IMG/VR virus record: IMGVR_UViG_3300029906_000160
From: a virus
Lineage: Duplodnaviria > Heunggongvirae > Uroviricota > Caudoviricetes
Strand: one strand, 5' to 3'
DNA length: 64,000 nt
The translations under genes were made by a program, and so were the position numbers. The notes beneath the pieces were generated by a model. It was not told the DNA's origin. It did no database searches and was given only the letters and a program-made list of their open reading frames with translations. Positions 4,963-63,261 of the stretch are shown here, piece by piece. Numbering within the stretch: the first letter of the stretch is position 1; every line of letters begins with the position of its first letter.

Positions 4963-5052
4963 GTCTTAGAGCAGGAGCTGAACGGGTCGAACGCTCACCT
5001 GAGGCTTTGGAGGCCCCCTTTACGGTTTTGAAGACCGCTGTGCTACCATTAC
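4963..5052 (-). tRNA. tRNA with anticodon UCA (reads UGA); tRNA-Trp-like backbone; atypical 25-nt variable region
   Basis: acceptor GGAGCUU/AGCUCC; D-arm UAGUGUAAUGGUAGCAC; anticodon arm GCGGU-CUUCAAA-ACCGU (E. coli tRNA-Trp has ..GGUCUCCAAAACCG..); T-arm GAGCG-UUCGACC-CGUUC; 90 nt. Confidence 0.6.
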
Positions 5053-5168
5053 ACTAAGCTCCTATTAAAATAAAGAACTCTCTATTTGCTTAGATTTATA
5101 ATCTCTCTAAATATTTGTTCTTTTAATTTCTAATACAAATATATAAAGAAATTTTTAATCTTACAAAT

Positions 5169-6437: not shown

Positions 6438-7118
6438 TTATTTATAATAAGCATTAAATGAACTTGCACTTATTTGTTCTATATGTGCGTTTTTTCTAAA
6501 TTCTTCAAGAGTTCTTGAATTACAGTAAGACATTGCTGAACGAAAATAACTAATAAAATTGTCACACCATCCAGCTAAAGTATATTTAATAGGAACAAGA
6601 GTTTCTATTCCTTCTGCTGTTTTTGTTGCTTCTCCACTTATTTCTGTTTGAGCTCTTTTTGTAGACATTCCATAATACTTACGTACTCTTTCGCCATTAT
6701 GATTAAATATAACTTTTCCACAAGCTTCTTCACTCATAGCAAATATCTTACCCAACATTACATAATCAGCACCAATTGCAAGAGCTTTGATTATTTGATC
6801 AAAATTAGAGAATCCTCCATCTGCAACTATTTTTGGAATAGATCTATAAGGACTGTAATAAATATATTTTTCTCCATCACAATTTTTTCGTTCTTTTCCA
6901 TTATACTCAGTTGAAACACTTACTGTATTCTTATGAAAAACTAATTTCTGAAGTAAAGAAACCATTGGATAATGAATACTCGAATTTGCCGAAGTAGTAC
7001 AATTGTGAACAACAAAATCATTAGCGATATATTGATGCTCTTTTTCAACTTCAATATCAAAAACCTCTGTAGATTGATACTTAATTTCTACAGAGGTTAT
7101 TTCTACAAAATTAATCAT
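6438..7118 (-). CDS. C-terminal split-intein half (IntC, 39 aa) fused to the C-extein of an IMPDH/GMP-reductase family enzyme
   Basis: N-term MINFVEITSVEIKYQSTEVFDIEVEKEHQYIANDFVVHN (intein blocks F/G ending HN) followed by CTTSAN (IMPDH catalytic-loop remainder); ADGGF..KALAIGADYVMLG TIM-barrel motifs. Confidence 0.8.
   Translation of the reverse strand: MINFVEITSVEIKYQSTEVFDIEVEKEHQYIANDFVVHNCTTSANSSIHYPMVSLLQKLVFHKNTVSVSTEYNGKERKNCDGEKYIYYSPYRSIPKIVADGGFSNFDQIIKALAIGADYVMLGKIFAMSEEACGKVIFNHNGERVRKYYGMSTKRAQTEISGEATKTAEGIETLVPIKYTLAGWCDNFISYFRSAMSYCNSRTLEEFRKNAHIEQISASSFNAYYK
7002..7118 (-). other. IntC split-intein segment
   Basis: blocks F and G; terminal Asn followed by +1 Cys. Confidence 0.7.
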
Positions 7119-8160
7119 ACATTAATTGTCTTATTTTATTTATTGTTTCTGGATTTTTAATATCATCTTTAGTTAAACGTAAAAATTTATATCCATTATC
7201 TTTAGCAAACTGTTCTTTTAATTGATCCCTTTCTTTTTCATCCTCTTTATGATATTTTCCTGTAGAATCATATTCGATTAAAACAGTTTTATTTATAAAG
7301 TAATCATAAATAACATATCCATCACTTAATTCAAACTTTTTTCCAAGTATAATTAAGTTTCCAATTTCAGGAAAATAAAATTTTAAAACTTGATAAAATT
7401 CAAATTCTTCATTAGAGTGAAGACCATAAGATAAATAAATATCTATTTCATCGCCATACAATCGTTTAAGATTTTTATAAACAGTTTCAGCAGATTTGGT
7501 TATTTTTTCATCATGTTTTTCGTTATAATATTTAACTAAAGAATGAATTGTATATTTTTGTGGATTTGCTTTAATCAAAAGATACATCCATGTATATGAA
7601 TTATTAGATTCTGTTTCGATAAAACCTTTACTCTCTACAACAAAATTATATCGATAAAAATCAGTTAATTCTGTGATTTCTTTTTCTGTACAAATTTCTA
7701 AAGCAATTCATACTTTTTTAAGAGTTCTTTTATCTATATTATATTGTTTTGCTACATCTATTAAAGGAGTTTCTTTATTAGAAAACATTTGAAAAGCTTC
7801 TGTAAAAGTTTTTTCATCATAACGATTCTTATACCATTGTTTTACATCAAAAGTATTCTTTAAAGATGGCTTTATTTTTTCTTTTATTTCTTGATTCGCT
7901 TGCTTAAGCATCCGCCCCATACAAGAATCTGTAGCATATTTATTAAATTCCCAACGCTTTCCTCCCGTACGTAAATGTAACGGATTTCCACAACCACAAG
8001 GGCATATAGGATGAACTCCGTTGTATCAAAATTTAACAATATAATCTTCTAATTCCATTTGATGATCTATTTTAATATGAGATCTCAATTTTGCTTTACA
8101 TGAACTTTCTTTTTCATATGTAAATTCTTTACCACAAATTTCGCATTTCAATGTTACCAT
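7111..8160 (-). CDS. free-standing homing endonuclease: N-terminal Zn-finger plus C-terminal Vsr/PD-(D/E)xK-like domain; 2 in-frame TGA read as Trp
   Basis: continuous 349-codon frame once TGA is sense (joins track ORFs 7111-7587 and 7708-7920 plus 7921-8160); CEICGKEF..CPCGCG; C-term VIYDYFINKTVLIEYDSTGKYH..DQLKEQFAKDNGYKFLRL. Confidence 0.65.
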
Positions 8161-8255
8161 ATTTTTAAAATTTTATAAGTTATACAATGTGCTATAGTTG
8201 TACCTCAACTACTAATACAAAAATAAGTATAAAATTTTAAAAATACAAATAAATG

Positions 8256-9047
8256 TTACACAATTTTATCCTCTACCAATAAATATTCAGAAGTTAAATT
8301 TTTTGCTTCAATATAAAAAGAATACTCAGATAAATTATTTTCTGTTACTTTATCTTTGTCTTTTTTATTTATAACAAGAAATTTATGATCTGGAGTACAT
8401 TTTATTTTATTATTTATCATTATTGTAGAATCGGTTGTCTTTTTAAAAGTAGAAACTACTTTTTGATTTCCAAAAATGGTTTTTACTTGTTCTCCAACAT
8501 CAATATCTTCGATATTCTTTTTCGTTCCATTTGCCATTGTAACTTTTGTTCCAGCAACAAAACAGCAACTTCCACCACCAATTCCACAACGAACATAGTC
8601 TATTCCTGCTCTAGCATATTCAAAATATGTATCTGGATTAGCTATATTACCCGCCATTATCTTAATCTCATCTCCGAACTTTTCTTTAGCTTGTTTACAG
8701 AGATTAAGAAGCCTCTTCATATGACCATTAGCTATATCTACACAAACATAGATAGTTTGAATTGGATGATAAAAATCAATCAATCTTTCAAATTCAGATA
8801 AAGATACAGCTATAAAAGTTTTATTAGATAAATCTAGTCTAGTTTCCCAATTAACTGACCTTGGAATAATAGTATTTATCTTATTATCTTGAAACATCTT
8901 CCAGTTATTTTCATCTATAACTGAGGTCATAGGCGCAGTAAATAATGGAAGCATACCATTATCCAAATAAGGATTACATTCACTTCTATGTTCTATTTCA
9001 GAAATGTCTGCTGGAACAAGACAAATGTCGTTAAATGAAAGTAACAT
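8256..9047 (-). CDS. N-extein of an IMPDH/GMP-reductase family enzyme (161 aa) fused to N-terminal split-intein half (IntN, 102 aa)
   Basis: ..YVRCGIGGGSC|CFVAGTKVTMANG (intein block A starting with Cys); block B CTPDHKF; ends with TAA. Confidence 0.8.
   Translation of the reverse strand: MLLSFNDICLVPADISEIEHRSECNPYLDNGMLPLFTAPMTSVIDENNWKMFQDNKINTIIPRSVNWETRLDLSNKTFIAVSLSEFERLIDFYHPIQTIYVCVDIANGHMKRLLNLCKQAKEKFGDEIKIMAGNIANPDTYFEYARAGIDYVRCGIGGGSCCFVAGTKVTMANGTKKNIEDIDVGEQVKTIFGNQKVVSTFKKTTDSTIMINNKIKCTPDHKFLVINKKDKDKVTENNLSEYSFYIEAKNLTSEYLLVEDKIV
8259..8564 (-). other. IntN split-intein segment
   Basis: blocks A (CFVAG) and B (TPDH) located in the last 102 codons. Confidence 0.7.
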
Positions 9048-11265: not shown

Positions 11266-11831
11266 TTATTTTGTATATTTCTTTCGTTCTTTTCTTCCAT
11301 TACCTTTATTAGCACCTTTATACGTAGCAGTTAAAGAATGACAATTTGGACATAATAGTATTAAATTTTCTTCAGAATTATTTAAATAATTTCCATCTAT
11401 GTGTTCGACTTCTAATGGAATTTTATTAGTATATGGATTTGTTTCTCCTCACCCACATCTAGCACATTTATTATTATATTTTTTAAACAAATAACACTTT
11501 AAATAAGAACTAACTTGATACTCGCCTTTTAATCCTGTTTCTTTTCCCTCTTTTCAACGTTTTTCTCATTCCTTTTGTTCTCAATTTTGTTGACATTGGT
11601 GAGAACAAAATTTTAAGTGAGCTTTATGTAAATTCTGTCCACAATTAAGGCAAACGCCATAATCTTTTTCTTTTTGAGTTGTTAATAAAATATCTAATTT
11701 TATTGCTCATCTTTTTATAGTTCGTCAATTAACATTATATAGTCTTCCTATTTCTGCATAAGAAAGTTGTTGAACGTTAATTAAATTGTTTAATGTTTCT
11801 TTGTCAATCATTTTAAAAATCTACTGTAATA
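11266..11831 (-). CDS. HNH homing endonuclease with N-terminal HTH; 5 in-frame TGA read as Trp
   Basis: CARCGW..LEVEHIDGN..NLILLCPNCH; HTH LSYAEIGRLYNVNWRTIKRW; unreadable in the standard code. Confidence 0.75.
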
Positions 11832-12152: not shown

Positions 12153-12227
12153 GAGCGCCAGTGGGACTCGAACCCACGTAGAATGGCTTATGAGACCATG
12201 CTGGGACCATCTCCAGTCTACAGCGCT
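12153..12227 (-). tRNA. tRNA-Met/Ile2 (CAU)
   Basis: acceptor AGCGCUG/UGGCGCU; anticodon loop CUCAUAA; T-arm GUGGGUUCGAGUCCCAC. Confidence 0.6.
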
Positions 12228-12261
12228 ATATTGTATCGCATAAATGTTTATTTATAATATA

Positions 12262-12720
12262 TCAAAGAGTACCTTTACTCTTTATATTATATTTTTTCAT
12301 TAAATCTTTATAAGAAAGCCCAAGATGTTTATCGCTTCGAATTTGTTTTATTAATTCATTAGAATAAATTCTATTTGCTAACGCAGATTTCTTTATTCTT
12401 ACTTTTTCTGGAATATCAAACATATTATCAGAATTAGTTCCAATTTCAATATTTTCCTCTTTATTGTTTAAAGAATTTCCATCTAAATGTCTAATAACCA
12501 TATCTTTTTCATAAATCTTTTCTTTAAACTTTTTATATGCTTGAAATCTATGATGATATACCTTAATATTCTTTCCATTTAACTTAAAAGAAAAATATAA
12601 ATAAGGTTGTTTTCCTCTAGTTCCAACAATGTTGCCTTTTGGACTTGTAACAATTCCATCTTTAGAAATTACATAACCTTTATTTCAAGCTAATTCTTCA
12701 TAATGATTATAATTTACCAT
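12262..12720 (-). CDS. HNH (HNH_3-type) endonuclease; 1 internal TGA read as Trp; annotated stop is itself TGA
   Basis: YHHRF..VIRHLDGNSLNNKEENIEIGTNSDN; track ORF 12262-12501 extends upstream through a TGA to an ATG at 12720. Confidence 0.65.
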
Positions 12721-14510: not shown

Positions 14511-14585
14511 ATTGAACTCACAGTAGGATTCGAACCTACATCTTCCTATAATAATATAGGTGTTCTGTCATTAAACTACATGAGT
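14511..14585 (-). tRNA. tRNA-like element (T-arm UAGGUUCGAAUCCUA); identity unresolved (6-nt anticodon loop by hand)
   Basis: acceptor ACUCAUG/UGUGAGU with G:U pairs; canonical T-arm. Confidence 0.4.
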
Positions 14586-15744: not shown

Positions 15745-16954
15745 GTCGTATATTTTATTTTATAAGCTTAATGTTATAATATTCACAGAGAGAATTTAAA
15801 ACATTTCTTTTAATGTTAAATATTTCAAATAGTTTCTGTTTTGTCTTATATTTACTTCAAGCTTCTAATAAGTCTTCTTTAGAAACTATAGGATTTCCAT
15901 TTTCATCTAATATAGACCTCAATTTTAATCATTTAGCGTTACATTCGCGAGAACAACAAACACTTTTTCTATCTTGAGGTTTATATTCTTTCCCACAAAC
16001 GATACAAATTCGTTTTGGAACAGGTTGTTTATTATTTAAACCTAACTCTGTTTTAGTAGATGGAAGATTATATTGTCTACATCATCTTCTAACAGTATTA
16101 TCTGTAACTCCAAATTGTTTAGCGATATTACGAAAACTTCTAGTTTGAATTGCTTCTTTTAATCATTCTTTTGTCGGATATTCTAAATTTGCGTTTTCAT
16201 TATTCTTTAATCTAGATTTTTGTAAAGTATCTAATCTAGATTTTGTACTACATTCTTTAGAACAAAAATCAGATGTACCAGAAAACTCTTTACCACAATA
16301 CTTACATTTCTTAATTTTGTGTTTTACTATAAGCTGATTTTCTTTCTTTATATTTTTACCACAATAATTATCTGTTATTGCATGACAATTTGGACACAAT
16401 AGTTGTAAATTTTCAATTCTATTATCAGTATTAATTCCATTAATATGATGGACTTCTAATGGAATTTGTTGTCCTTCTCATTCTGTTTTATTACATTTTT
16501 CACATTTTCATTCTTTTAATCCAAATTCCACTAATCTAATTTTTAATTTAGATTTTTGATAATCTGAATTTTCTTTAAATATATCTTCTTTAGTATATTT
16601 CTTTCTAACTTTTTCTTTTGTATTATCTATACAAAAATGAGAAGTATCAATATTATATTTTTCTATAATTTTGTTAATACGAGAATAATTTGTATTTGTC
16701 GCTCTAATTCCTAAATTTTTACAAACATCGTTTATATTCTTACATTTTGGAATTAAATCAACAATAATTTGTTCATATTCTTGTTTAGCTTTTTCTCGTT
16801 CGATTATCTTTTCTCTATCTTTTTGTCATTTAGTACCAAGATAATAAGCTACTAATGATTTTGTAGAATTACATTTTGATGCAATTTGAGTATAACTTAA
16901 TCCTTGATTATGTAATTCTTTAAATAATTTATATTTTTCTTCAGCTTCAGTCAT
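15745..16954 (-). CDS. HNH homing endonuclease with multiple HTH domains (about 402 aa); 7 in-frame TGA read as Trp
   Basis: LEVHHINGINTDNRIENLQLLCPNCH; C-terminal HTH ..NTVRRWCRQYNL with W=TGA; track shows only a 78-aa fragment (16163-16399). Confidence 0.75.
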
Positions 16955-22309: not shown

Positions 22310-23200
22310 TTAACTAATTTCTTCTATTTCGTGAGACACGGTATCTAAATTAAGAAAAAATTGAACTTTTTCATATTTTCTAGGCAATCATATATTATCT
22401 TTTTCTGCATAAATTTTTTCAACAAAAAATTTTATTTCTTGAGAATTACAATTACGAATATAAGAACTACATCCAGTTTTTGTTTGTCTTTGAATAACTT
22501 TTGTTTTTAAACCAAAGTATTCTAAAAGCTTTTGCATTCCAGTTCAATCCTGATTATATGAACTAGTAATACTAAATGTTGTACTAAAAGTAGTTTTCTT
22601 AGACTGAATATAATAACATCCATCACCGTCTATATAACCTCTCAAAAAGTAAGATCAATATTCTTTTGGAACATAGTCTATAATTTTTTGATGTGATTCT
22701 ATGGATTTACTATATTTGCCTAATTGCTGTAATTGTTCTGCAATATCAATTCGATTTGTATGAATTTCAATTTGAGGTTTTCTGTTTTTTCTTATTTGAT
22801 GATAAATATTAAATTGCCCTAACTTTTGAAATATAGGAAATACTTTATCTCCGTCTTCTTGAACAATTTTAATAGATAAACCTCCTTTTTTAGAAATATA
22901 TCCATCTGCTCAAAAATATCCTAAAAAATATGCTAATTCTTTTGGAAACTTTGTTTTAGAAAAATCAATAGTAAAATCAAAATGTTTGTCTTGCTCACCA
23001 TTGAATGTTAAACTCTTTATTTCTTCCTCTGTGACATTAATTGGATGTTTGTTCGTTCCAATTTTTAAACGAGACCCCATTCCGACAATACTAGCAACAG
23101 TTCTATCTAATTTTTCTCCACAAACGATTGCTCCAAATTTTTTAAGATTCTGTTTTAAAAATTCAATTTCATCTTTAGTTCAGGATTTATTTTGTTTCAT
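22310..23200 (-). CDS. LAGLIDADG homing endonuclease (two motifs), free-standing; 5 in-frame TGA read as Trp
   Basis: LAYFLGYFWADGYIS and WSYFLRGYIDGDGCYY; 297-codon continuous frame only with TGA as sense. Confidence 0.75.
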
Positions 23201-23278: not shown

Positions 23279-23737
23279 TTATAACTCTGAAACTTGATGT
23301 GATACTGTATCGATAACAAATGCGCGTCTACAATCTAAATCTACAAAATTTTCTAAAATTATGGGATTTTCCTTCGTTTGGGAATGTCCGAAAACCTGGA
23401 ATAAAGTATCGTCACAATCAGATTCACGAACATCATGCCAAATTGGAGAACCAGTAGAATACCAACCACCTCTTTCCCAACTCATTTCCCAAAATATTTC
23501 AGGAGATGCTTTATATATCTCATTTAGATAAATATCTGCATCAGTTTCTGGAAGTTTTAGATCATGACGCTTTAACCAATCTTTAGATACTCCTGCATGC
23601 GTGAACAGAGTATCATCAATTTGTTTAGCTATCTGAAAAAACTCTATATCTTCAGTATATATTTGATGTAATTCATCCCACCTAAAAGAATCTATTCTAG
23701 ATGCATTATAACTCGAATAAATATAGTGCCAATCCGT
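23279..23737 (-). CDS. C-terminal half of a PPP-family Ser/Thr phosphatase (lambda-PPase/ApaH-like)
   Basis: DTLFTHAGVS, VFGHSQTK motifs; frame opens right after a TAA with no ATG; 1 TGA read as Trp upstream of the first Met. Confidence 0.6.
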   Translation of the reverse strand, partial: TDWHYIYSSYNASRIDSFRWDELHQIYTEDIEFFQIAKQIDDTLFTHAGVSKDWLKRHDLKLPETDADIYLNEIYKASPEIFWEMSWERGGWYSTGSPIWHDVRESDCDDTLFQVFGHSQTKENPIILENFVDLDCRRAFVIDTVSHQVSEL

Positions 23738-23829
23738 TTATGTTCAATGTAAATCGTTAGTTTACACCCGTTATTAACTGCTTATACTTCATTTTCGTAT
23801 AAGACCTGACTATATCTTCACCTTCGACA

Positions 23830-24702
23830 TTACTCGTTAAGGGCGGAGCATTCCGAAGCACTTGCTTCTACCACCATTTCAGGAATAGTCGATGAACCTT
23901 CAACCTCATTAGAGGAAGCTTGGCTGCTGATTACCATCTCAGGCGTCCCAGCAATTAACTCCGTTTCACTTAATGATTTCTCATTAAGAGCACAAATTAT
24001 TTCTTCAAATTTTTTCTTTTTTCTTGGAAGGAAAACTGTTGCGTCTTTATATATAAAATCATAAAACTTTTTAATATTTTGTCTACCAGAATATTCCATT
24101 GTACAAATATCGGAATTAATTCTACGTGAGTTTAACTTAGTTTGTTTAAATCCTAGATTATCAATTAAATATTGTTGATAAGCTGAAATAAAAGAAACGT
24201 ATCCGGTAATATTAAATTTAACATTATGAATAATACGTTCTCTACGTCCCTCTTTTCGTGTGGGATCGTTTACTCACATTTTCTTTCTTTTTCCATTTCA
24301 AATACAACCGTCTCCATCAAAATAACCTCGCATAAAGTGAGAAATTAAATCTTCTGGGACTTGTCATTCTGTTGGTCAAGACAAATTTTTAGTTTTACGT
24401 TTAACACATCCTTGTTTTTCTAATGATTCTGCAATATGTTTTCCGTATACATAAAATCGAATTTGATCCTCATGATTTTCATTTGTATCTTTTCTAATAA
24501 GTAATGGATAATCCGATTTCATTTCTTCTTTTAATTTATCAACAACACATCTATCTTCAATTTGAAGTGATATTGATATCTCTCCAGTAGTTGGATGTTC
24601 ATGATTACATCCATCTGCATACAATAATCCAAGAAAATATGCCTTTTCTGGCGTATTTATCTCATCAAAATAAGTTTCATCATAATTATGTTTTCTTTTC
24701 AT
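23830..24702 (-). CDS. LAGLIDADG homing endonuclease between the two phosphatase halves; several in-frame TGA read as Trp
   Basis: KAYFLGLLYADGC and HFMRGYFDGDGCIW; joins track ORFs 24376-24702 and 23830-24099. Confidence 0.7.
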
Positions 24703-24765
24703 ATATTTATAAATTTAATTGATTTAACTTTACAAATATACAAATATTTATTATGATTTCCAAAT

Positions 24766-25014
24766 TTATTTTGATGATTTCCAAAAATTTGATAATTTAT
24801 GATTACCTAGTAAAAGAGTGACTCTATCAGGGTTTTGATCCTTAAAATTTAGTATATCTAAAAGATATTGTATAGAATTAGGATATTCATCTTTCCATTC
24901 GTATGGATAAGGATCAAGATAATCTCCTAAAAATATAATTGAATCATTCCACTTTTTTACAGCATCTTTCCAAAACTCACGAAGATGTAAATCGGGAATT
25001 ATTAGCGCTTTCAT
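24766..25014 (-). CDS. N-terminal half of a PPP-family Ser/Thr phosphatase
   Basis: IIPDLHL, FLGDYLDPYP, LLLGNHK (GDxHG / GDxxDRG / GNHE motifs). Confidence 0.7.
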   Translation of the reverse strand: MKALIIPDLHLREFWKDAVKKWNDSIIFLGDYLDPYPYEWKDEYPNSIQYLLDILNFKDQNPDRVTLLLGNHKLSNFWKSSK

Positions 25015-34412: not shown

Positions 34413-34430
34413 AATTGAAAAGTTTTAATT

Positions 34431-34466
34431 AGTGGAGATATCGGGAATCGAACCCGAGTCTTTTAT
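34431..34466 (-). other. tRNA-like 3' fragment (T-arm UCGGG-UUCGAUU-CCCGA plus acceptor) bordering a 750-nt ORF-free region
   Basis: no matching 5' half found by hand; 9-nt direct repeat TGGAGATAT also at 34683. Confidence 0.35.
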
Positions 34467-35211
34467 TAATCCTATATAGTTTTTATTTATATGCTTAGTT
34501 AATTTTTCTAAACTAACAAAATAACTAAATTGATTAAAGAGTGTTTAGTAAAACTCTGAATTTAAAGAATTATAATGAAAAGAGCTATGCGAAACTATAA
34601 TTAAAAGGCATAGTGGGAGTAAAGAACTCTTTGAGTGTCTTCACTACTTTTGAGAAAAGATTTTTAATTCCGTTTATTTTTGGAGATATTTAAAGTAATC
34701 ACTTACTGCATAAAACATATACCAAATCAATAAAATCAAATCCAAGCATCCCCAATGCAAAGATAAGAAAAAGTTTTAAATATACAAATAAAAATGGATA
34801 CTAAGTATAAATAATTCGCCTGCCTTTCTAATTTCAAAATTGGACGCGCTATATAGCTATTTTATAAATATACTTAGTATCCAAATAAAAATGGAAGATC
34901 TGACTGTATGTTTAAGTAACCCAAAATGCTAGTTACATAACGCATAATCCCTACAGCTAGGCTCTATTCTCTTAAATAGACTTTAGCACCAGATCTTCCA
35001 AAAAATTGGTTATAAGGTTACCAACCCAGCCTAGGCAACTTTAATCTAGAATTCAGTTGCTTCGTTACTTCAGACGCCAAATAATATTGTCTGAGAGTCA
35101 CCTCTATCTTTAATATGTATATAAGGAAGCTGAGGAAGCTATTATACACATCCGGATCTTTATATACTTCTCCTAGTATAATCCGGCTATACTAAGAGGA
35201 CTTATAAAAGA

Positions 35212-53823: not shown

Positions 53824-54557
53824 TTACTGTATATTAATTTCACTTTTGATGTCTCCATTTTGTGTTTCTAATTTTTTACGAGCACGTCATTCTTTAGAAT
53901 ATTGTTTTCTATAAGCAGAAATTTGTTCTTTATGAGTTTCCTCATATATTTTACTAGTTTCTTTAATTTTTTCTTTGTTTTCTACTCTATATTGTTTCAT
54001 ATATTCTTTAATCTTTTTTTTATTACGTTCTCTATATTCTTTTTTCTTTCTTAACCGCTCAGCTCGTTGTTCCGGAGTTTCATTTAATAATTTTTGATGT
54101 CTTTTTTCTTTATTCTTTTCGTTATAAATTTTATCATATGCTTGTTTCTTTTCTTTATTTGCTTTAGTATAAGCTTTTCTACATTCAGATAAAGAATCAT
54201 AATCACAAATAGAAAATTTAGCATTTGGGTTTCTTCTTCCTCTACTGCCATTTCCTCCTTTTGTTAAGTTATATCCTAAATCTGGATAATCTTCTACATA
54301 TGAATGTAATTTTTCTATTCACAATATTTCTTGTTGATCTAATCTTTTATCACGAAGTTTTGGTGAAGTAGAACAAAAACAATAAAGAATTTTAAAATCA
54401 AAATTATCAATTCCATATTTTTGAATAGCTCGATCAATTAAACTTCGTCTATTGTCTCGAAGTTTTAAGTGTTCAGCCATTCTTCTTTTTAAATTAGCTG
54501 TTTGACCAACATATCTCTTTTTATTAATTTTATTTACATAAACATAAATTCATCCTT
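53824..54557 (-). CDS. GIY-YIG homing endonuclease; TGA read as Trp
   Basis: MIYKGWIYVYVNKINKKRYVGQTANLKRRMAEH..GYNLTKGG. Confidence 0.65.
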
Positions 54558-54805
54558 TATAAATCATTTTTCTTATTATCGTTTATTTTGTCTCTTCTAA
54601 ATGGCGACATAATTGCATCTATGCCAAGTAATCCAGAAGAACAATAAAAAAGAACTTCTGCAATTAAAGGAGCTTGTATGCACAATATCGTACAATAAAT
54701 AACTACGAATAAACATACAAGTCATCCAAGAAATCCAGCAATTCTTTTTGATGAGACTCCTGACCTTGACATAAAGATCTTCTGGAAATACTCTGATGCT
54801 TTCAT
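54547..54805 (-). CDS. small membrane protein, holin-like (about 85 aa, 1 TGA read as Trp)
   Basis: two hydrophobic segments; adjacent to the endolysin-like gene. Confidence 0.4.
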
Positions 54806-59574: not shown

Positions 59575-60384
59575 ATGGTAAAGAAAAGAGAGAGATTAGA
59601 AGATACGCCGGAATTTATGAAAAAATATGGTCAAGCTTTAAAGAGAATGGATGAACGTAACAAAACTGCAGAAGAAAAGAAATCCAAACTTAATAAGCAA
59701 GACTTACAAAAACTCCCCGGATTCGCAGAAAATTATGAAGAAAGTCTTATTCGACAATTATTCGAAGAAGATCTTAAGAAAAAGATTGAAAAATATCTTG
59801 GAGAAGATGATAAAGAATCGCAATATTATCAAGACTCATGAGAATTAAAACATCATAAAAGAGACGGATTGTGAGATGTTAAAGCTGATGAGAGAATTGA
59901 ATATTTTGATCCTGAGTTATCTTACGAATTAACTGGTTATCGTCCCATAACAATGACTGAAGGTTTGGACTTTGATCCAGAACCATTTAGAGAAGCAGCT
60001 AGAATTTATGAAGAAACTGGAAAATATACTGAATATCCAGCAGGTTGTAAACCATACAATGATTATTGAATGGAACAACTTAAACGATGTGCTGAAGGTT
60101 ATACCGTTGGAAAGTATAGAATAACTGGAGATCATTATTTCTTCTTAAATTTCTATCATATGCAAACCGTTAATAAGTCTAGTGCAAAACACGTAAGAGG
60201 TCGTATACAAAGCTTTCCAATGTTTGCTGTAAAACAGTATGAGTTCTTTCATTACGTAGAACTATGCGAATATACAGGACACGATGTTGTTATGTTAAAG
60301 GCAAGAGCTTTAAATATTATCTTGAAGCCATTAGCAGTAATGTTAATGTTAAATCCCGCAATATCGGTAAATACTGAGATGTAA
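59575..60384 (+). CDS. terL: terminase large subunit, N-terminal segment up to the Walker-A position (..DVVMLKAR)
   Basis: T4 gp17-like pattern ..FPMFAVKQYEFFHYV..VVMLKAR; 3 TGA read as Trp; frame ends 25 codons later in TAA. Confidence 0.55.
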
Positions 60385-60546
60385 ATACCGAGATAACTTG
60401 AAATCACAAGTATCGTAGAGCATAGAAGATGAGCGTTAAGAGAGCAATAATTCTTCCAAGAGTGTGGGCTCCATTATATGGATGAAAATATATGCCGAAC
60501 TATAAAGAACAACAATTTATAGAATTATGAGATAAAAAGCTCATAA

Positions 60547-60996
60547 GATAACAAATGAGGATTTTCAGAGATCTTAGCTGATCTTTGTGTTAGACCTTTC
60601 ATTACAACTCGTCAATTTAGAACAGTGGCCACTGCTGATTCTGATGGACACTTAGATCCATTACTTGATAAATGTTGGACTCAGCTTAACTGACTTAACC
60701 TTCATACTGATGGGGGTATGAAACGTTCACGCCAAAAAATCGATAATATTAAACAAAAGAGAGCATCACTTTTAAATAAAGAAGGAGTCGAATATGGATC
60801 AATGTCAGAAATAGAAGGAATTGTCGCAGATGATCCTAATAAGATTCGTGGCGATCGTGTTGAAAGATTAATATATGAAGAAGCTGGTTCTCAACCAAAA
60901 CTTATTAAAGCTTGAATACAAGGAAATGCATTAGTGGAGATAGGAGGTGAAAAGATAGGGGTTCGAATTGCCGGAGGAACGGGTAGATTAATGTAA
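60547..60996 (+). CDS. terL: terminase large subunit, central ATPase segment (Walker-B region)
   Basis: ..ADDPNKIRGDRVERLIYEEAGS.. (cf. gp17 [21 protein letters not shown]). Confidence 0.5.
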
Positions 60997-61022
60997 ATTA
61001 TTAACTAGTAATTTTTATTGTT

Positions 61023-61922
61023 ATGACTACAACAAAAATAGAACGTGAAAAAATAAAACAAATAATTATTGATGAATACATAAACACTCCAGAAAAAGAA
61101 AGAAGTTTAACTAAACTAGGAAATAAATATGGAGTTAAAAGACAAACAATTTCTAAATGATTAAAAGCTAAAGGATTTGAAATAATTAATTATCAAAATA
61201 GATGTAGAATTGACGAAACAGTTTTTGATAATATAGATACAGAAGAAAAAGCATATTGATTAGGTTTTCTTTATGCTGATGGAAATATTAGTACAGTAGG
61301 AAATCGTTTAGAAATGAATTTATCTTCTAAAGATTTAGATCATATGTTAAAATTTAAAAAATTTTTAAAATTAGAATCTGAAATTAGAATTGAGGATAAT
61401 CATGGAGAAGGAAAAGAAATTTGTAGATTAGCTGTCAGAAATAAACATATCTGGCAACAATTAAATGATAAAGGATGTGTTCCTTGTAAGTCTTTAATTT
61501 TAATATTTCCAGATAGGTCTATATTTAAATCAGAAATTTTAATTTATGATTTTATACGAGGATATTGCGATGGAGATGGAAGTTTAGGTATGTATATTAA
61601 AGAAAATACAAAAACTCATAAATGTTGAATATCTTTTGTAGGAACAAAAGATTTTTTAAATGGAATTGAAAATTTTCTTAATATTAAAGGAACAATTCGT
61701 AATAAAACTTGTACTAATTGACAAAATCAAGCTTATAATCTTAAATACGAAGGAGTAAAAGCTAGAAAAGTAGCAAGATTACTTTATGAAAATTCATCAA
61801 TTTATATGAATAGAAAATATAATAGATTTTTACAATTCTGCTCCTTTGAAGAGGGATCTTCAACAGCAAAATCGAGCAAAATCGAAAGACGCTGTAATGC
61901 GAATATCGAGGTAAATAACTAG
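61023..61922 (+). CDS. LAGLIDADG homing endonuclease inserted within terL; 4 TGA read as Trp
   Basis: AYWLGFLYADGNIS and FIRGYCDGDGSL; N-terminal HTH. Confidence 0.75.
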
Positions 61923-62079
61923 ATTGCGAAAGGCTAGTTATCACCGTAACGCGTAGTAATTGAATAAATATAATATTACCAAGAGTGCTCGACATCTAGA
62001 ACAGATGAAAATGTACGCTGAACTATAGAGAATAAGAATCTATAGAATTTAGAGATAAAAAACTCTAAAGATAACAAAA

Positions 62080-63261
62080 TTGGGTGATTCCGGAATTGCA
62101 CTTGCGGGATTATCTGAAATGTTTAATAATCCTCGTGCTTATAATGTATTACCTTACAAAAATAAATATACTCGTGATGGCAAGATTGCTTACACTGGTT
62201 TCTTCATTCCAGCTCATGAGTTCTCTTTAAATCCAGAATTTGTTGATTCTCGTGGAGTCACAGATTCCGTTAGATTTAAACAATGATATGAAGAACAACG
62301 AAAAAAGATGGAAGGTCAAGCTCTCTTAGATTATTGTGCAGAACACTGTTTTACTCCTGATGAAGCGCTTCTTAGACAAGGTGATAATATCTTTGACTCA
62401 ATTGTTATTTCTGAACGACTCACTCAAATTAGAGTATTTAAAGAAAATTATCAAAAACCTGAACCAACAGCACTTTTATGAGTTGGAGAAGAAAGAAAAT
62501 TTGTAAAAGCACAACCTCTAAGTACGAGTAAATTACTTGTTGTTGAACCTCCTCTTTTAGACATGGATGGAAATCCTTATAATAATTTATATGTTGCAGG
62601 AATAGATGCTATTGATATGGGTAAAGAAGATTCTGCTATAGATTCTGATGTATCTGATTTCTGCATTGTAATTAAAAAACGTGCATTTGGTATGGATTCT
62701 CCAAAATATGTGGCCATGTATAAAGATCGTCCACAGAAAATTAGAGATGCATACGAAATTGCTATGAAACTTTGTGTATGATATAATTGTAAAGCAATGT
62801 TGGAGTATACAAAAATATCTATACAAAAATACTTTGAACAATATAAAAAATCTCACTTATTTATGGCTCGTCCTGAATTTGCAGTATCGAATCGTGCAAA
62901 AAGAACCACAACTAAAAATCTTATTGGTTTACCTGCAACAGAATCTGTTATCAAGCATGGGTTGGAGTTAATCGAAATGTATGTTGAAGACTATTGACAA
63001 GATATTATGTTCGATGAAATGCTTGAACAACTTTTAAATTATTCTTATGAAGAAAAAAGAAAGTTTGATATTGTAGCAGCCTTATCAATGTGTGAGATTG
63101 GAGATGAAGCAATGCTGGGGTTCTCTGTTAAAAATGCTCAATCTACTAAACAAGAATGAAAAGACTACGGATATTATTATGATGAGAATGGGCATAAAAG
63201 ATTCGGAGTTATTCCAGATAAAAATAATAATATAATACAACCACCAAAATGACACTTTTAG
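62080..63261 (+). CDS. terL: terminase large subunit, C-terminal nuclease segment
   Basis: ..LLVVEPPLLDMDGNPYNNLYVAGIDAIDMGKEDSAIDSDVSDFCIVIKK.. (RNase-H-fold nuclease motif); several TGA read as Trp. Confidence 0.55.

Follow-up and report, generated by a model that had tools for sequence, protein, structure and literature searches.

A probable fractured IMPDH/GMP-reductase-family gene in a TGA-recoded gut phage, with a split intein at the catalytic cysteine and a TGA-bearing Vsr-like homing-endonuclease gene between its halves

Fractured genes with the order N-half, endonuclease gene, C-half are known from ocean-survey data, where three such loci are of the IMPDH family (Dassa et al., 2009; PMC2677866). 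These three loci are the source of IMPDH-1, an active split intein that trans-splices experimentally and serves as a fast, efficient and orthogonal tool for trans-splicing and protein ligation (PMC7090010; PMC11168065). The native IMPDH-1 junction is GGG/SIC, and the Ser at position +1 is essential (PMC7090010; PMC11168065). Here we describe a locus of this kind in a stretch of 64,000 nucleotides from the Caudoviricetes record IMGVR_UViG_3300029906_000160 of IMG/VR, referred to below as the window. In this locus an IMPDH/GMP-reductase-family gene is interrupted by the two parts of a split intein, and a homing-endonuclease gene with in-frame TGA codons lies between them. We consider it highly likely that this is a fractured gene of a TGA-recoded, crAss-like gut phage, and that the Vsr-like endonuclease encoded within it depends on a suppressor tRNA.

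Other described systems share single aspects of the locus. The EDxHD, or Vsr-like, homing endonucleases have I-Bth0305I as their prototype (Taylor et al., 2011; PMC3239194; PDB 3r3p). In phage Aeh1, nrdA is split by mobE, and a hairpin-embedded promoter hides the endonuclease start in read-through transcripts (Gibb and Edgell, as summarized in PMC2677866). TGA-recoded gut phages include Zeta crAss-like phages (Yutin et al., 2021, PMC7886860; Lera phage, PMC12386605) and Agate phages (Borges et al., bioRxiv 10.1101/2021.08.26.457843). In the latter, an early-gene intron endonuclease prefers TGA, and a delayed production of this endonuclease was proposed (Borges et al.). The architecture, host gene family, intein family and endonuclease fold were already published in 2009-2012, and so was, in 2021, the proposal that an endonuclease in an early gene is silenced through recoding. 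The following appear to be new: the insertion lies at the catalytic Cys, with Cys at +1; the cassette is spread over gut phages, some of them on contigs of 363-397 kb; a fractured gene is combined with TGA recoding; and in-frame TGA is present in all eight endonuclease genes of the window.

All parts of the fractured IMPDH locus are on the minus strand at 6438-9047, where the original prediction had placed them:

8256-9047, minus strand: N-half open reading frame (ORF), 263 residues, ...YVRCGIGGGSC, then CFVAGTKV...CTPDHKF...LLVEDKIV, then TAA
8565..9047, minus strand: N-extein, 161 codons, 3' end reading ...GIDYVRCGIGGGSC; Pfam IMPDH; colinear with cr108_1 and L002
8259..8564, minus strand: intein N-fragment, 102 codons, CFVAGT...CTPDHKF...LLVEDKIV, TAA at 8256-8258; Pfam Hom_end_hint, Vint and Intein_splicing
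8161..8255, minus strand: 5' untranslated region (UTR) of the endonuclease gene, 95 nt, with a Bacteroidetes-type promoter motif and an A/U-rich hairpin of ~20 bp
7111..8160, minus strand: free-standing homing-endonuclease gene, 349 codons plus TAA, with its own start and stop
7111..7118, minus strand: 8-nt overlap ATGATTAA of the endonuclease ORF end and the C-half start codon
6438-7118, minus strand: C-half ORF, 226 residues, MINFVEITS...DFVVHN (39 residues), then CTTSAN / CTTSANSSIHYP...
7002..7118, minus strand: intein C-fragment, 39 codons, MINFVEITS...DIEVEKEHQYIANDFVVHN; Intein_splicing profile positions 119-155 of 155
6438..7001, minus strand: C-extein, 187 codons plus TAA, starting CTTSAN; Pfam IMPDH; aligned to the intein-free CSIGSGNNCITASN
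Intein-less site of the L002 type, for comparison: ...GGTAATAAC/TGTATTACC...

The Pfam IMPDH model (PF00478) matches the N-half with an E-value of 4e-14, the C-half with 4e-26 and the joined exteins with 8e-44. The fused exteins align in one piece, over 100% of their length and at 47.5% identity, to a 'dehydrogenase' of the crAss-like phage cr108_1. Uninterrupted one-piece homologues are also present in Lak phages and other large uncultured phages. An uninterrupted allele in L002, a viral contig of 177 kb, is 69% identical to the window exteins, and its CSIGSGNNCITASN aligns where the window has CGIGGGSC/CTTSAN. The intein therefore directly precedes the Cys of the catalytic loop, which doubles as the +1 nucleophile. 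This agrees with the original prediction, which had a fractured gene split by an intein just before the catalytic Cys: both halves match Pfam IMPDH and intein models, and the exteins are colinear. The predicted fragment lengths of 102 and 39 residues agree with the ORF coordinates, and the predicted likeness to fractured genes of environmental phage sequences holds for the layout (Dassa et al., 2009). The extein total, put at about 347 residues, is 348 by count (161 + 187).

In size the extein protein corresponds to a GMP reductase, and there is no CBS insert. Its Pfam match, which is at the superfamily level, points to a divergent member of the IMPDH superfamily. The proposed kinship with GuaB and GuaC stands at that level and does not extend to either enzyme, as no IMPDH or GMP-reductase equivalog cut-off of NCBIfam is reached and all of them lie far above the score of the extein. 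We therefore name the product an IMPDH/GMP-reductase-family enzyme without assigning a reaction. With 25 kb of the window as query, megablast matched none of 50,697 phage records, and no close relative of the phage is found among them.

The two intein fragments, when fused, align over their full length with the IMPDH-1 split intein (38% identity, E 6e-26). The split point is identical, and the fragments of 102 and 39 residues compare with 101 and 40 in IMPDH-1. The IMPDH-1 reference sequence and native junction were taken from the supplement of PMC7090010, and its Ser+1 from PMC11168065. Together with the Pfam Hint and Intein_splicing matches, the alignment supports the earlier assignment of the halves to intein blocks. 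Across seven intein alleles, Cys1, Thr62 and His65 of the block B TxxH motif, Asp128 and His135 of block F, and His145-Asn146 are invariant. The window insertion lies at GIGGGSC/CTT and not at the IMPDH-1 junction GGG/SIC. It is two residues further downstream, and its +1 residue is Cys, the catalytic Cys, instead of Ser. The same insertion site, with Cys at +1 and the junction X/C(T/L)T, is found in all six gut-phage alleles (the window, L006, L007, L008, L012 and L014). In the first 57 codons of the C-half, the ratio of nonsynonymous to synonymous substitution rates (dN/dS) against L006 is 0.01. We strongly infer that the two half-proteins would splice in trans, because the splicing residues are invariant across the seven inteins. 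The locus shares with the published IMPDH loci the enzyme family and the order of N-half, endonuclease gene and C-half; as in published fractured genes, the 3' end of the endonuclease gene overlaps the next ORF and its 5' UTR holds a hairpin. It differs from the IMPDH-1 loci in its insertion point, its +1 residue, its origin in gut phages instead of marine and estuarine samples, and its TGA-recoded endonuclease.

The endonuclease consists, from N- to C-terminus, of a C2H2 zinc finger, a CPCGCG cluster, a helical, helix-turn-helix (HTH)-like DNA-binding region and a Vsr-like nuclease domain. Among 5.8 billion proteins searched there are 47 homologues with 40-93% identity, nearly all of them full length (~345-375 residues), in which the C2H2 residues (Cys6, Cys9, His28 and His33) and the CPCGCG cluster are invariant. 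In 45 homologues the zinc-binding residues are invariant together with Asp286, Glu296, Asp298, His304 and Asp312 of the C-terminal domain, candidate catalytic residues that are spaced similarly to those of I-Bth0305I. The AlphaFold2 model has a mean predicted local distance difference test (pLDDT) of 83.6, and Pfam DUF559 matches the C-terminus with 25 bits. The catalytic domain is modelled as a Vsr-type nuclease fold, and it is the fold and DUF559 that tie it to Vsr. A profile search of the PDB with the endonuclease family gave chance matches only, with no sequence-level match to I-Bth0305I or Vsr, and NCBIfam gave no match. The endonuclease is a distant branch of the Vsr-like enzymes with a different DNA-binding N-terminus: the C2H2 finger, CPCGCG cluster and HTH-like helices take the place of the NUMOD repeats of I-Bth0305I, and its gene lies between split-intein halves whereas the I-Bth0305I type lies in a group I intron. 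It had been described from the outset as a free-standing product of 349 codons with an N-terminal zinc finger and a Vsr-like C-terminus, and the ORF, the invariant C2H2 residues and DUF559 agree with this. The enzyme would be expected to cut intein-less alleles.

The endonuclease frame contains exactly two in-frame TGA codons (codon 45, 8026-8028; codon 151, 7708-7710) and no TAA or TAG. The probability of a run of 349 codons without TAA or TAG at the local composition is 3e-13, and the other two frames of the same strand contain 27 and 31 such codons over this stretch. The first TGA aligns with a Trp in the closest homologue, and the second falls on a Trp that is nearly invariant among homologues (KKVW). 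The gene in L006 (879-1928) is 92% identical to that of the window in nucleotides and 93% in protein, with a dS of 0.40, a dN of 0.027 and a dN/dS of 0.067, which indicates purifying selection. Three of the five Trp codons differ between the two: all five are TGA in L006, while two are TGA and three TGG in the window; L007 has four TGA and no TGG. The low dN/dS and the interchange of TGA and TGG indicate that the endonuclease gene is functional and that its TGA codons are read as Trp. The original prediction that the frame needs TGA as Trp is supported by this interchange with L006 and by the TGAs that align with Trp. The TGG at three Trp codons of the window also means that selection for TGA is not absolute. 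L007 has TGA at the shared Trp positions, and the window lineage may have reverted from TGA to TGG. In the standard code the frame falls into pieces of 44, 70 and 158 residues, and the gene callers of some assemblies break the gene into these three fragments.

A candidate suppressor for these codons is encoded ~3 kb from the endonuclease gene:

4972..5063, minus strand: tRNA(UCA), TGA suppressor (ARAGORN; Rfam tRNA, 52.4 bits; fold)
5136-5167, minus strand: promoter-like motif of tRNA(UCA), Bacteroidetes type, ~70 nt upstream

This tRNA of 92-93 nt is conserved in L015. It has the pair A1-U72, G73, the anticodon loop CUUCAAA, a 7-bp acceptor stem and a variable region with a 5-bp extra arm, as in class II tRNAs. 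Its acceptor stem, D arm and anticodon arm resemble those of tRNA-Trp. Candidates for its charging are tryptophanyl-tRNA synthetase (TrpRS) and seryl-tRNA synthetase (SerRS). ARAGORN labelled it 'tRNA-SeC'. Bacterial tRNA-Sec has an acceptor stem of 8 bp; we rejected the label because the stem here has 7 bp and TGA aligns with Trp.

The use of TGA separates gene classes within the window. The early genes of a minus-strand block at 337-~35,600 lack TGA and use TGG, with six homing-endonuclease genes as the exceptions; besides the IMPDH halves, they encode a chaperonin, AAA proteins, an ADP-ribosylglycohydrolase and an isochorismatase. TGA abounds in the genes for structure, lysis and packaging, among them those for tail fibres, M15 peptidases and TerL, and the late genes contain 56 TGA against 24 TGG. 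The genome is ~30% G+C. Besides the gene in the fractured locus, the homing-endonuclease genes are:

11266-11811, 12226-12720 and 15755-16954: HNH genes with in-frame TGA (Pfam)
22310-23200 and 23830-24702: early LAGLIDADG genes with in-frame TGA (Pfam)
53824-54567: GIY-YIG gene of the late region with in-frame TGA
61023-61922: LAGLIDADG gene (weaker match) of the late region with in-frame TGA

All eight homing-endonuclease genes, of four families, contain in-frame TGA. In the early block (~35 kb), six endonuclease genes have 26 TGA and 3 TGG, and five of the six have no TGG at all; the 37 other genes have 3 TGA and 88 TGG (Fisher p 8e-20). The two endonuclease genes of the late region together have 7 TGA and 1 TGG. 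The early ones are TGA-coded even where they lie amid TGA-free early genes and tRNA genes. The same contrast is seen in L007, where the endonuclease gene has 4 TGA and no TGG and its 12 neighbours have 20 TGG and no TGA.

The original prediction also held that a selfish element uses a different code from the gene it splits, and this part has to be corrected. The IMPDH halves contain no TGA, encode Trp as TGG and translate identically under codes 11 and 4; they are code-neutral, and the whole phage is TGA-recoded. The contrast is one of gene classes inside one phage, not of two codes. This phage belongs among the gut phages already known to be TGA-recoded and to carry their own tRNA(UCA). It shares with them Trp-position TGA mainly in late genes, standard-code early and replication genes, and a high load of introns, inteins and endonuclease genes. 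The Agate case differs from the present one, where a split-intein fractured gene harbours the recoded endonuclease and all eight endonuclease genes bear TGA. The genome is probably ~177 kb. TerL has 27% identity to Crassvirales and 41% to a gut phage. The contig size of ~177 kb, the distant TerL, the endonuclease load and the Bacteroidetes-type motifs fit the Zeta crAss-like group (PMC7886860; PMC12386605), although membership is not confirmed. From the TGA-free early genes, the Bacteroidetes-type motifs and the crAss-like TerL, we infer a host that uses the standard code.

Two candidate control elements lie in and around the spacer between the N-half and the endonuclease gene:

8218-8249, minus strand: promoter motif TTTG-N20-TATTTTTG in the spacer
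8228-8247 (5' arm, in the promoter spacer) and 8158-8177 (3' arm, spanning the endonuclease AUG), minus strand: hairpin found by folding

The motif at 8218-8249 matches the Bacteroidetes promoter consensus. Its general form, TTTG-N19-21-TAnnTTTG, has 11 copies in the window where 2.07 ± 1.21 are expected, an excess of ~five-fold, and none of 100 shuffles reached 11. Most copies closely precede genes; they are found before the suppressor tRNA and the tRNA array, before both early LAGLIDADG genes and the tmRNA-like gene, and at the starts of late operons. The motif is kept 5' of the endonuclease gene in L006 and L007 despite a different spacer sequence. Its distribution suggests a Bacteroidota host and a single promoter class that would serve the suppressor tRNA as well as the endonuclease and late genes. 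A scan of the locus for the sigma-70 consensus was uninformative, with fewer matches than in shuffles and no terminators. The z-scores of the hairpin against shuffles are -1.77 in the window, -2.91 in L006 and -5.87 in L007; folding of the standard-code relatives L008 and L014 found no endonuclease hairpin. The 8-nt overlap at the other end of the endonuclease gene is of a sort typical of fractured genes, in which ORFs overlap by 6-69 bp (PMC2677866). Hairpin, promoter and overlap may all be regulators. As far as Aeh1 mobE is described in PMC2677866, the window shares with it a promoter embedded in a hairpin that covers the translation start of the endonuclease. In that description the Aeh1 locus has no intein and a T4-type late promoter (TATAAATA), whereas the window has the predicted Bacteroidetes-type motif TTTG...TAnnTTTG.

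These elements suggest how a fractured gene of this type could work. The two half-proteins would associate through their intein fragments and trans-splice, yielding the loop GIGGGSC-CTTS and an active enzyme of ~348 residues. The endonuclease would cut intein-less alleles such as that of L002 near the insertion point, and on co-infection this cut would lead to the entire cassette, intein halves and endonuclease gene together, being copied into related phages. The hairpin would bury the endonuclease AUG in transcripts that read through from the N-half; the AUG would be free in those that start at the hairpin-embedded promoter and lack the 5' arm. Separately, the two UGA codons would halt translation unless the phage suppressor tRNA is sufficient, and the other seven homing-endonuclease genes of the window would have the same TGA dependence. 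Recoding could then be a general leash on selfish DNA, such that all eight endonucleases, of four families, are made only after the phage switches code. We regard this extension as tentative and rather doubtful. If it were true, re-assembly of the enzyme may partly follow the same switch, since the C-half starts inside the end of the endonuclease ORF.

Several observations weigh against this account or parts of it. The extein's best NCBIfam equivalog match, to GMP reductase, has 125 bits against a cut-off of 397. The long extra arm of tRNA(UCA) is unusual for tRNA-Trp, which makes its charging with Trp uncertain. In the window itself the hairpin surpasses shuffles only weakly, and three of the five Trp codons of the endonuclease gene, all TGA in L006, may have reverted to TGG. 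Since the suppressor tRNA carries the same promoter-type motif as the endonuclease gene, the two may be made simultaneously, and a strict 'late-only' reading is weakened. Trans-splicing, the activity of the endonuclease and the insertion of Trp at UGA are predictions from sequence. Some of these points also favour an explanation that leaves the fractured gene unchanged but gives the TGA codons of the endonuclease genes no regulatory role: AT-biased drift from TGG to TGA in genes not needed before the suppressor tRNA is present, or transfer of endonucleases between TGA-recoded phages. The low G+C content, the TGA-heavy late genes, the TGG at three window positions that are TGA in L006 (so that both are tolerated), the TGG-only cassettes of the standard-code relatives L008, L012 and L014, and the common promoter type all speak for it. 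It does not readily explain why TGA in the early block hardly occurs outside the six endonuclease genes, why L007 repeats the contrast, or why five of six early endonuclease genes lack TGG, and the intron endonuclease of Agate phages statistically prefers TGA (Borges et al.). We see it as a real possibility that falls somewhat short of an even chance.

The remaining alternatives concern the locus itself and are much less probable. Homing-endonuclease genes often decay after fixation, and the standard-code pieces, with which some gene callers agree, would be expected of a pseudogene whose TGAs are true stops and whose only product is a 44-residue zinc-finger peptide. A decaying gene is hard to reconcile with a frame that stays free of TAA and TAG for 349 codons, with candidate catalytic and zinc-binding residues that are invariant in 45 homologues, or with a tRNA(UCA) encoded 3 kb away. 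Its dN/dS of 0.067 at a dS of 0.40, and TGAs that stand at Trp positions and interchange with TGG, led us to reject it; we give it hardly any weight. It is improbable, if less extremely so, that there is no trans-splicing, either because the insertion inactivated the gene or because the halves form a non-covalent complex through their intein fragments. Ligation is not proven by sequence, the extein is a divergent family member, and the -1 Cys is non-canonical for the loop, which has Ile at this position in the IMPDH consensus. The splicing residues are nevertheless invariant across alleles with only 37-92% identity, the first 57 C-half codons are under the strong constraint given above, and the homologous IMPDH-1 splices efficiently. 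With the intein at the catalytic Cys, the active-site loop would be disrupted in an enzyme left unspliced. The arrangement persists in phages of ~39 kb to 397 kb. One could also imagine the endonuclease gene in a self-splicing group I intron within a contiguous mini-intein gene, so that RNA splicing restores a cis-splicing intein. Zeta crAss-like phages are reported to be rich in introns (PMC7886860), and the metallophosphatase and TerL genes of this phage are seemingly interrupted by introns. At the IMPDH locus, the 95 non-coding nucleotides upstream of the endonuclease gene and none downstream, where the ORFs overlap by 8 nt, are too little for an intron core. The N-fragment closes with a stop codon and the C-fragment opens with an ATG, each its own, at the canonical split position that IMPDH-1 also has, and a search with Rfam found no group I intron at the gathering threshold or at E<=1. 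We think an intron here is very improbable. A fractured gene with a trans-splicing intein and a functional, suppressor-dependent endonuclease remains the reading that we favour.

This fractured locus is not confined to the window. Each genomic context of an endonuclease homologue that was inspected is the same fractured IMPDH locus:

L006: endonuclease 93% identical to that of the window; TGA-recoded pattern
L007: endonuclease 58% identical; 171-kb contig
L008-L011: endonuclease 48% identical; contigs up to 397 kb
L012 and L013: endonuclease 47% identical; contigs up to 363 kb
L014: endonuclease 40% identical

The standard-code relatives L008, L012 and L014 have the same cassette, with Trp as TGG only. 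At least 23 contigs, of up to 177 kb and from several samples, contain the exact C-half of the window, and those that reach far enough upstream show the unchanged locus. Transposase genes adjoin the fractured IMPDH locus in the phage contigs of 363-397 kb: an IS1595-type DDE transposase gene in L008 (1906-2880) and an IS605 OrfB/TnpB-like gene in L012 (327-1553).

With this locus, the class of fractured genes, known from marine metagenomes, extends to abundant gut phages: crAss-like phages of ~177 kb as well as phages on contigs of 363-397 kb. The locus shows that the IMPDH split-intein family has a second insertion point, directly at the catalytic Cys, and gives the widely used ligation tool IMPDH-1 a set of natural relatives with Cys at +1. 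The confinement of early-block in-frame TGA to homing-endonuclease genes is a clean, replicated case in which it can be tested whether a switch of code times or contains selfish elements. For annotation, the locus illustrates how standard-code gene calling breaks an endonuclease into three fragments.

Two other genes of the window appear to be interrupted. A metallophosphatase gene at 23279-25014, minus strand, is apparently split into an N-part (24766-25014), which stops just past the GNH motif, and a C-part (23279-23737). The TGA-coded LAGLIDADG gene at 23830-24702, with its own promoter motif, sits between the two parts. No intein motifs were seen at this interruption, which is probably an intron or an intein-less fracture. 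TerL (59575-63261, plus strand) is in at least three pieces, 59575-60384, 60718-60996 and 62119-63261, all with TGA, and the LAGLIDADG gene at 61023-61922 lies between the last two.

Two further RNA genes are on the minus strand. A tmRNA-like gene identified by ARAGORN at 34430-34753 has a promoter motif directly upstream (34758-34788) and matches Rfam RF00023 over its full length with 44 bits (gathering threshold 47; E 4e-16). A tmRNA in a phage that recodes a stop codon may merit attention. At 14514-14585 there is a tRNA-like gene (Rfam tRNA, 49 bits) with an anticodon loop that is not 7 nt long, in an AUUAUU context, for which ARAGORN names no anticodon.

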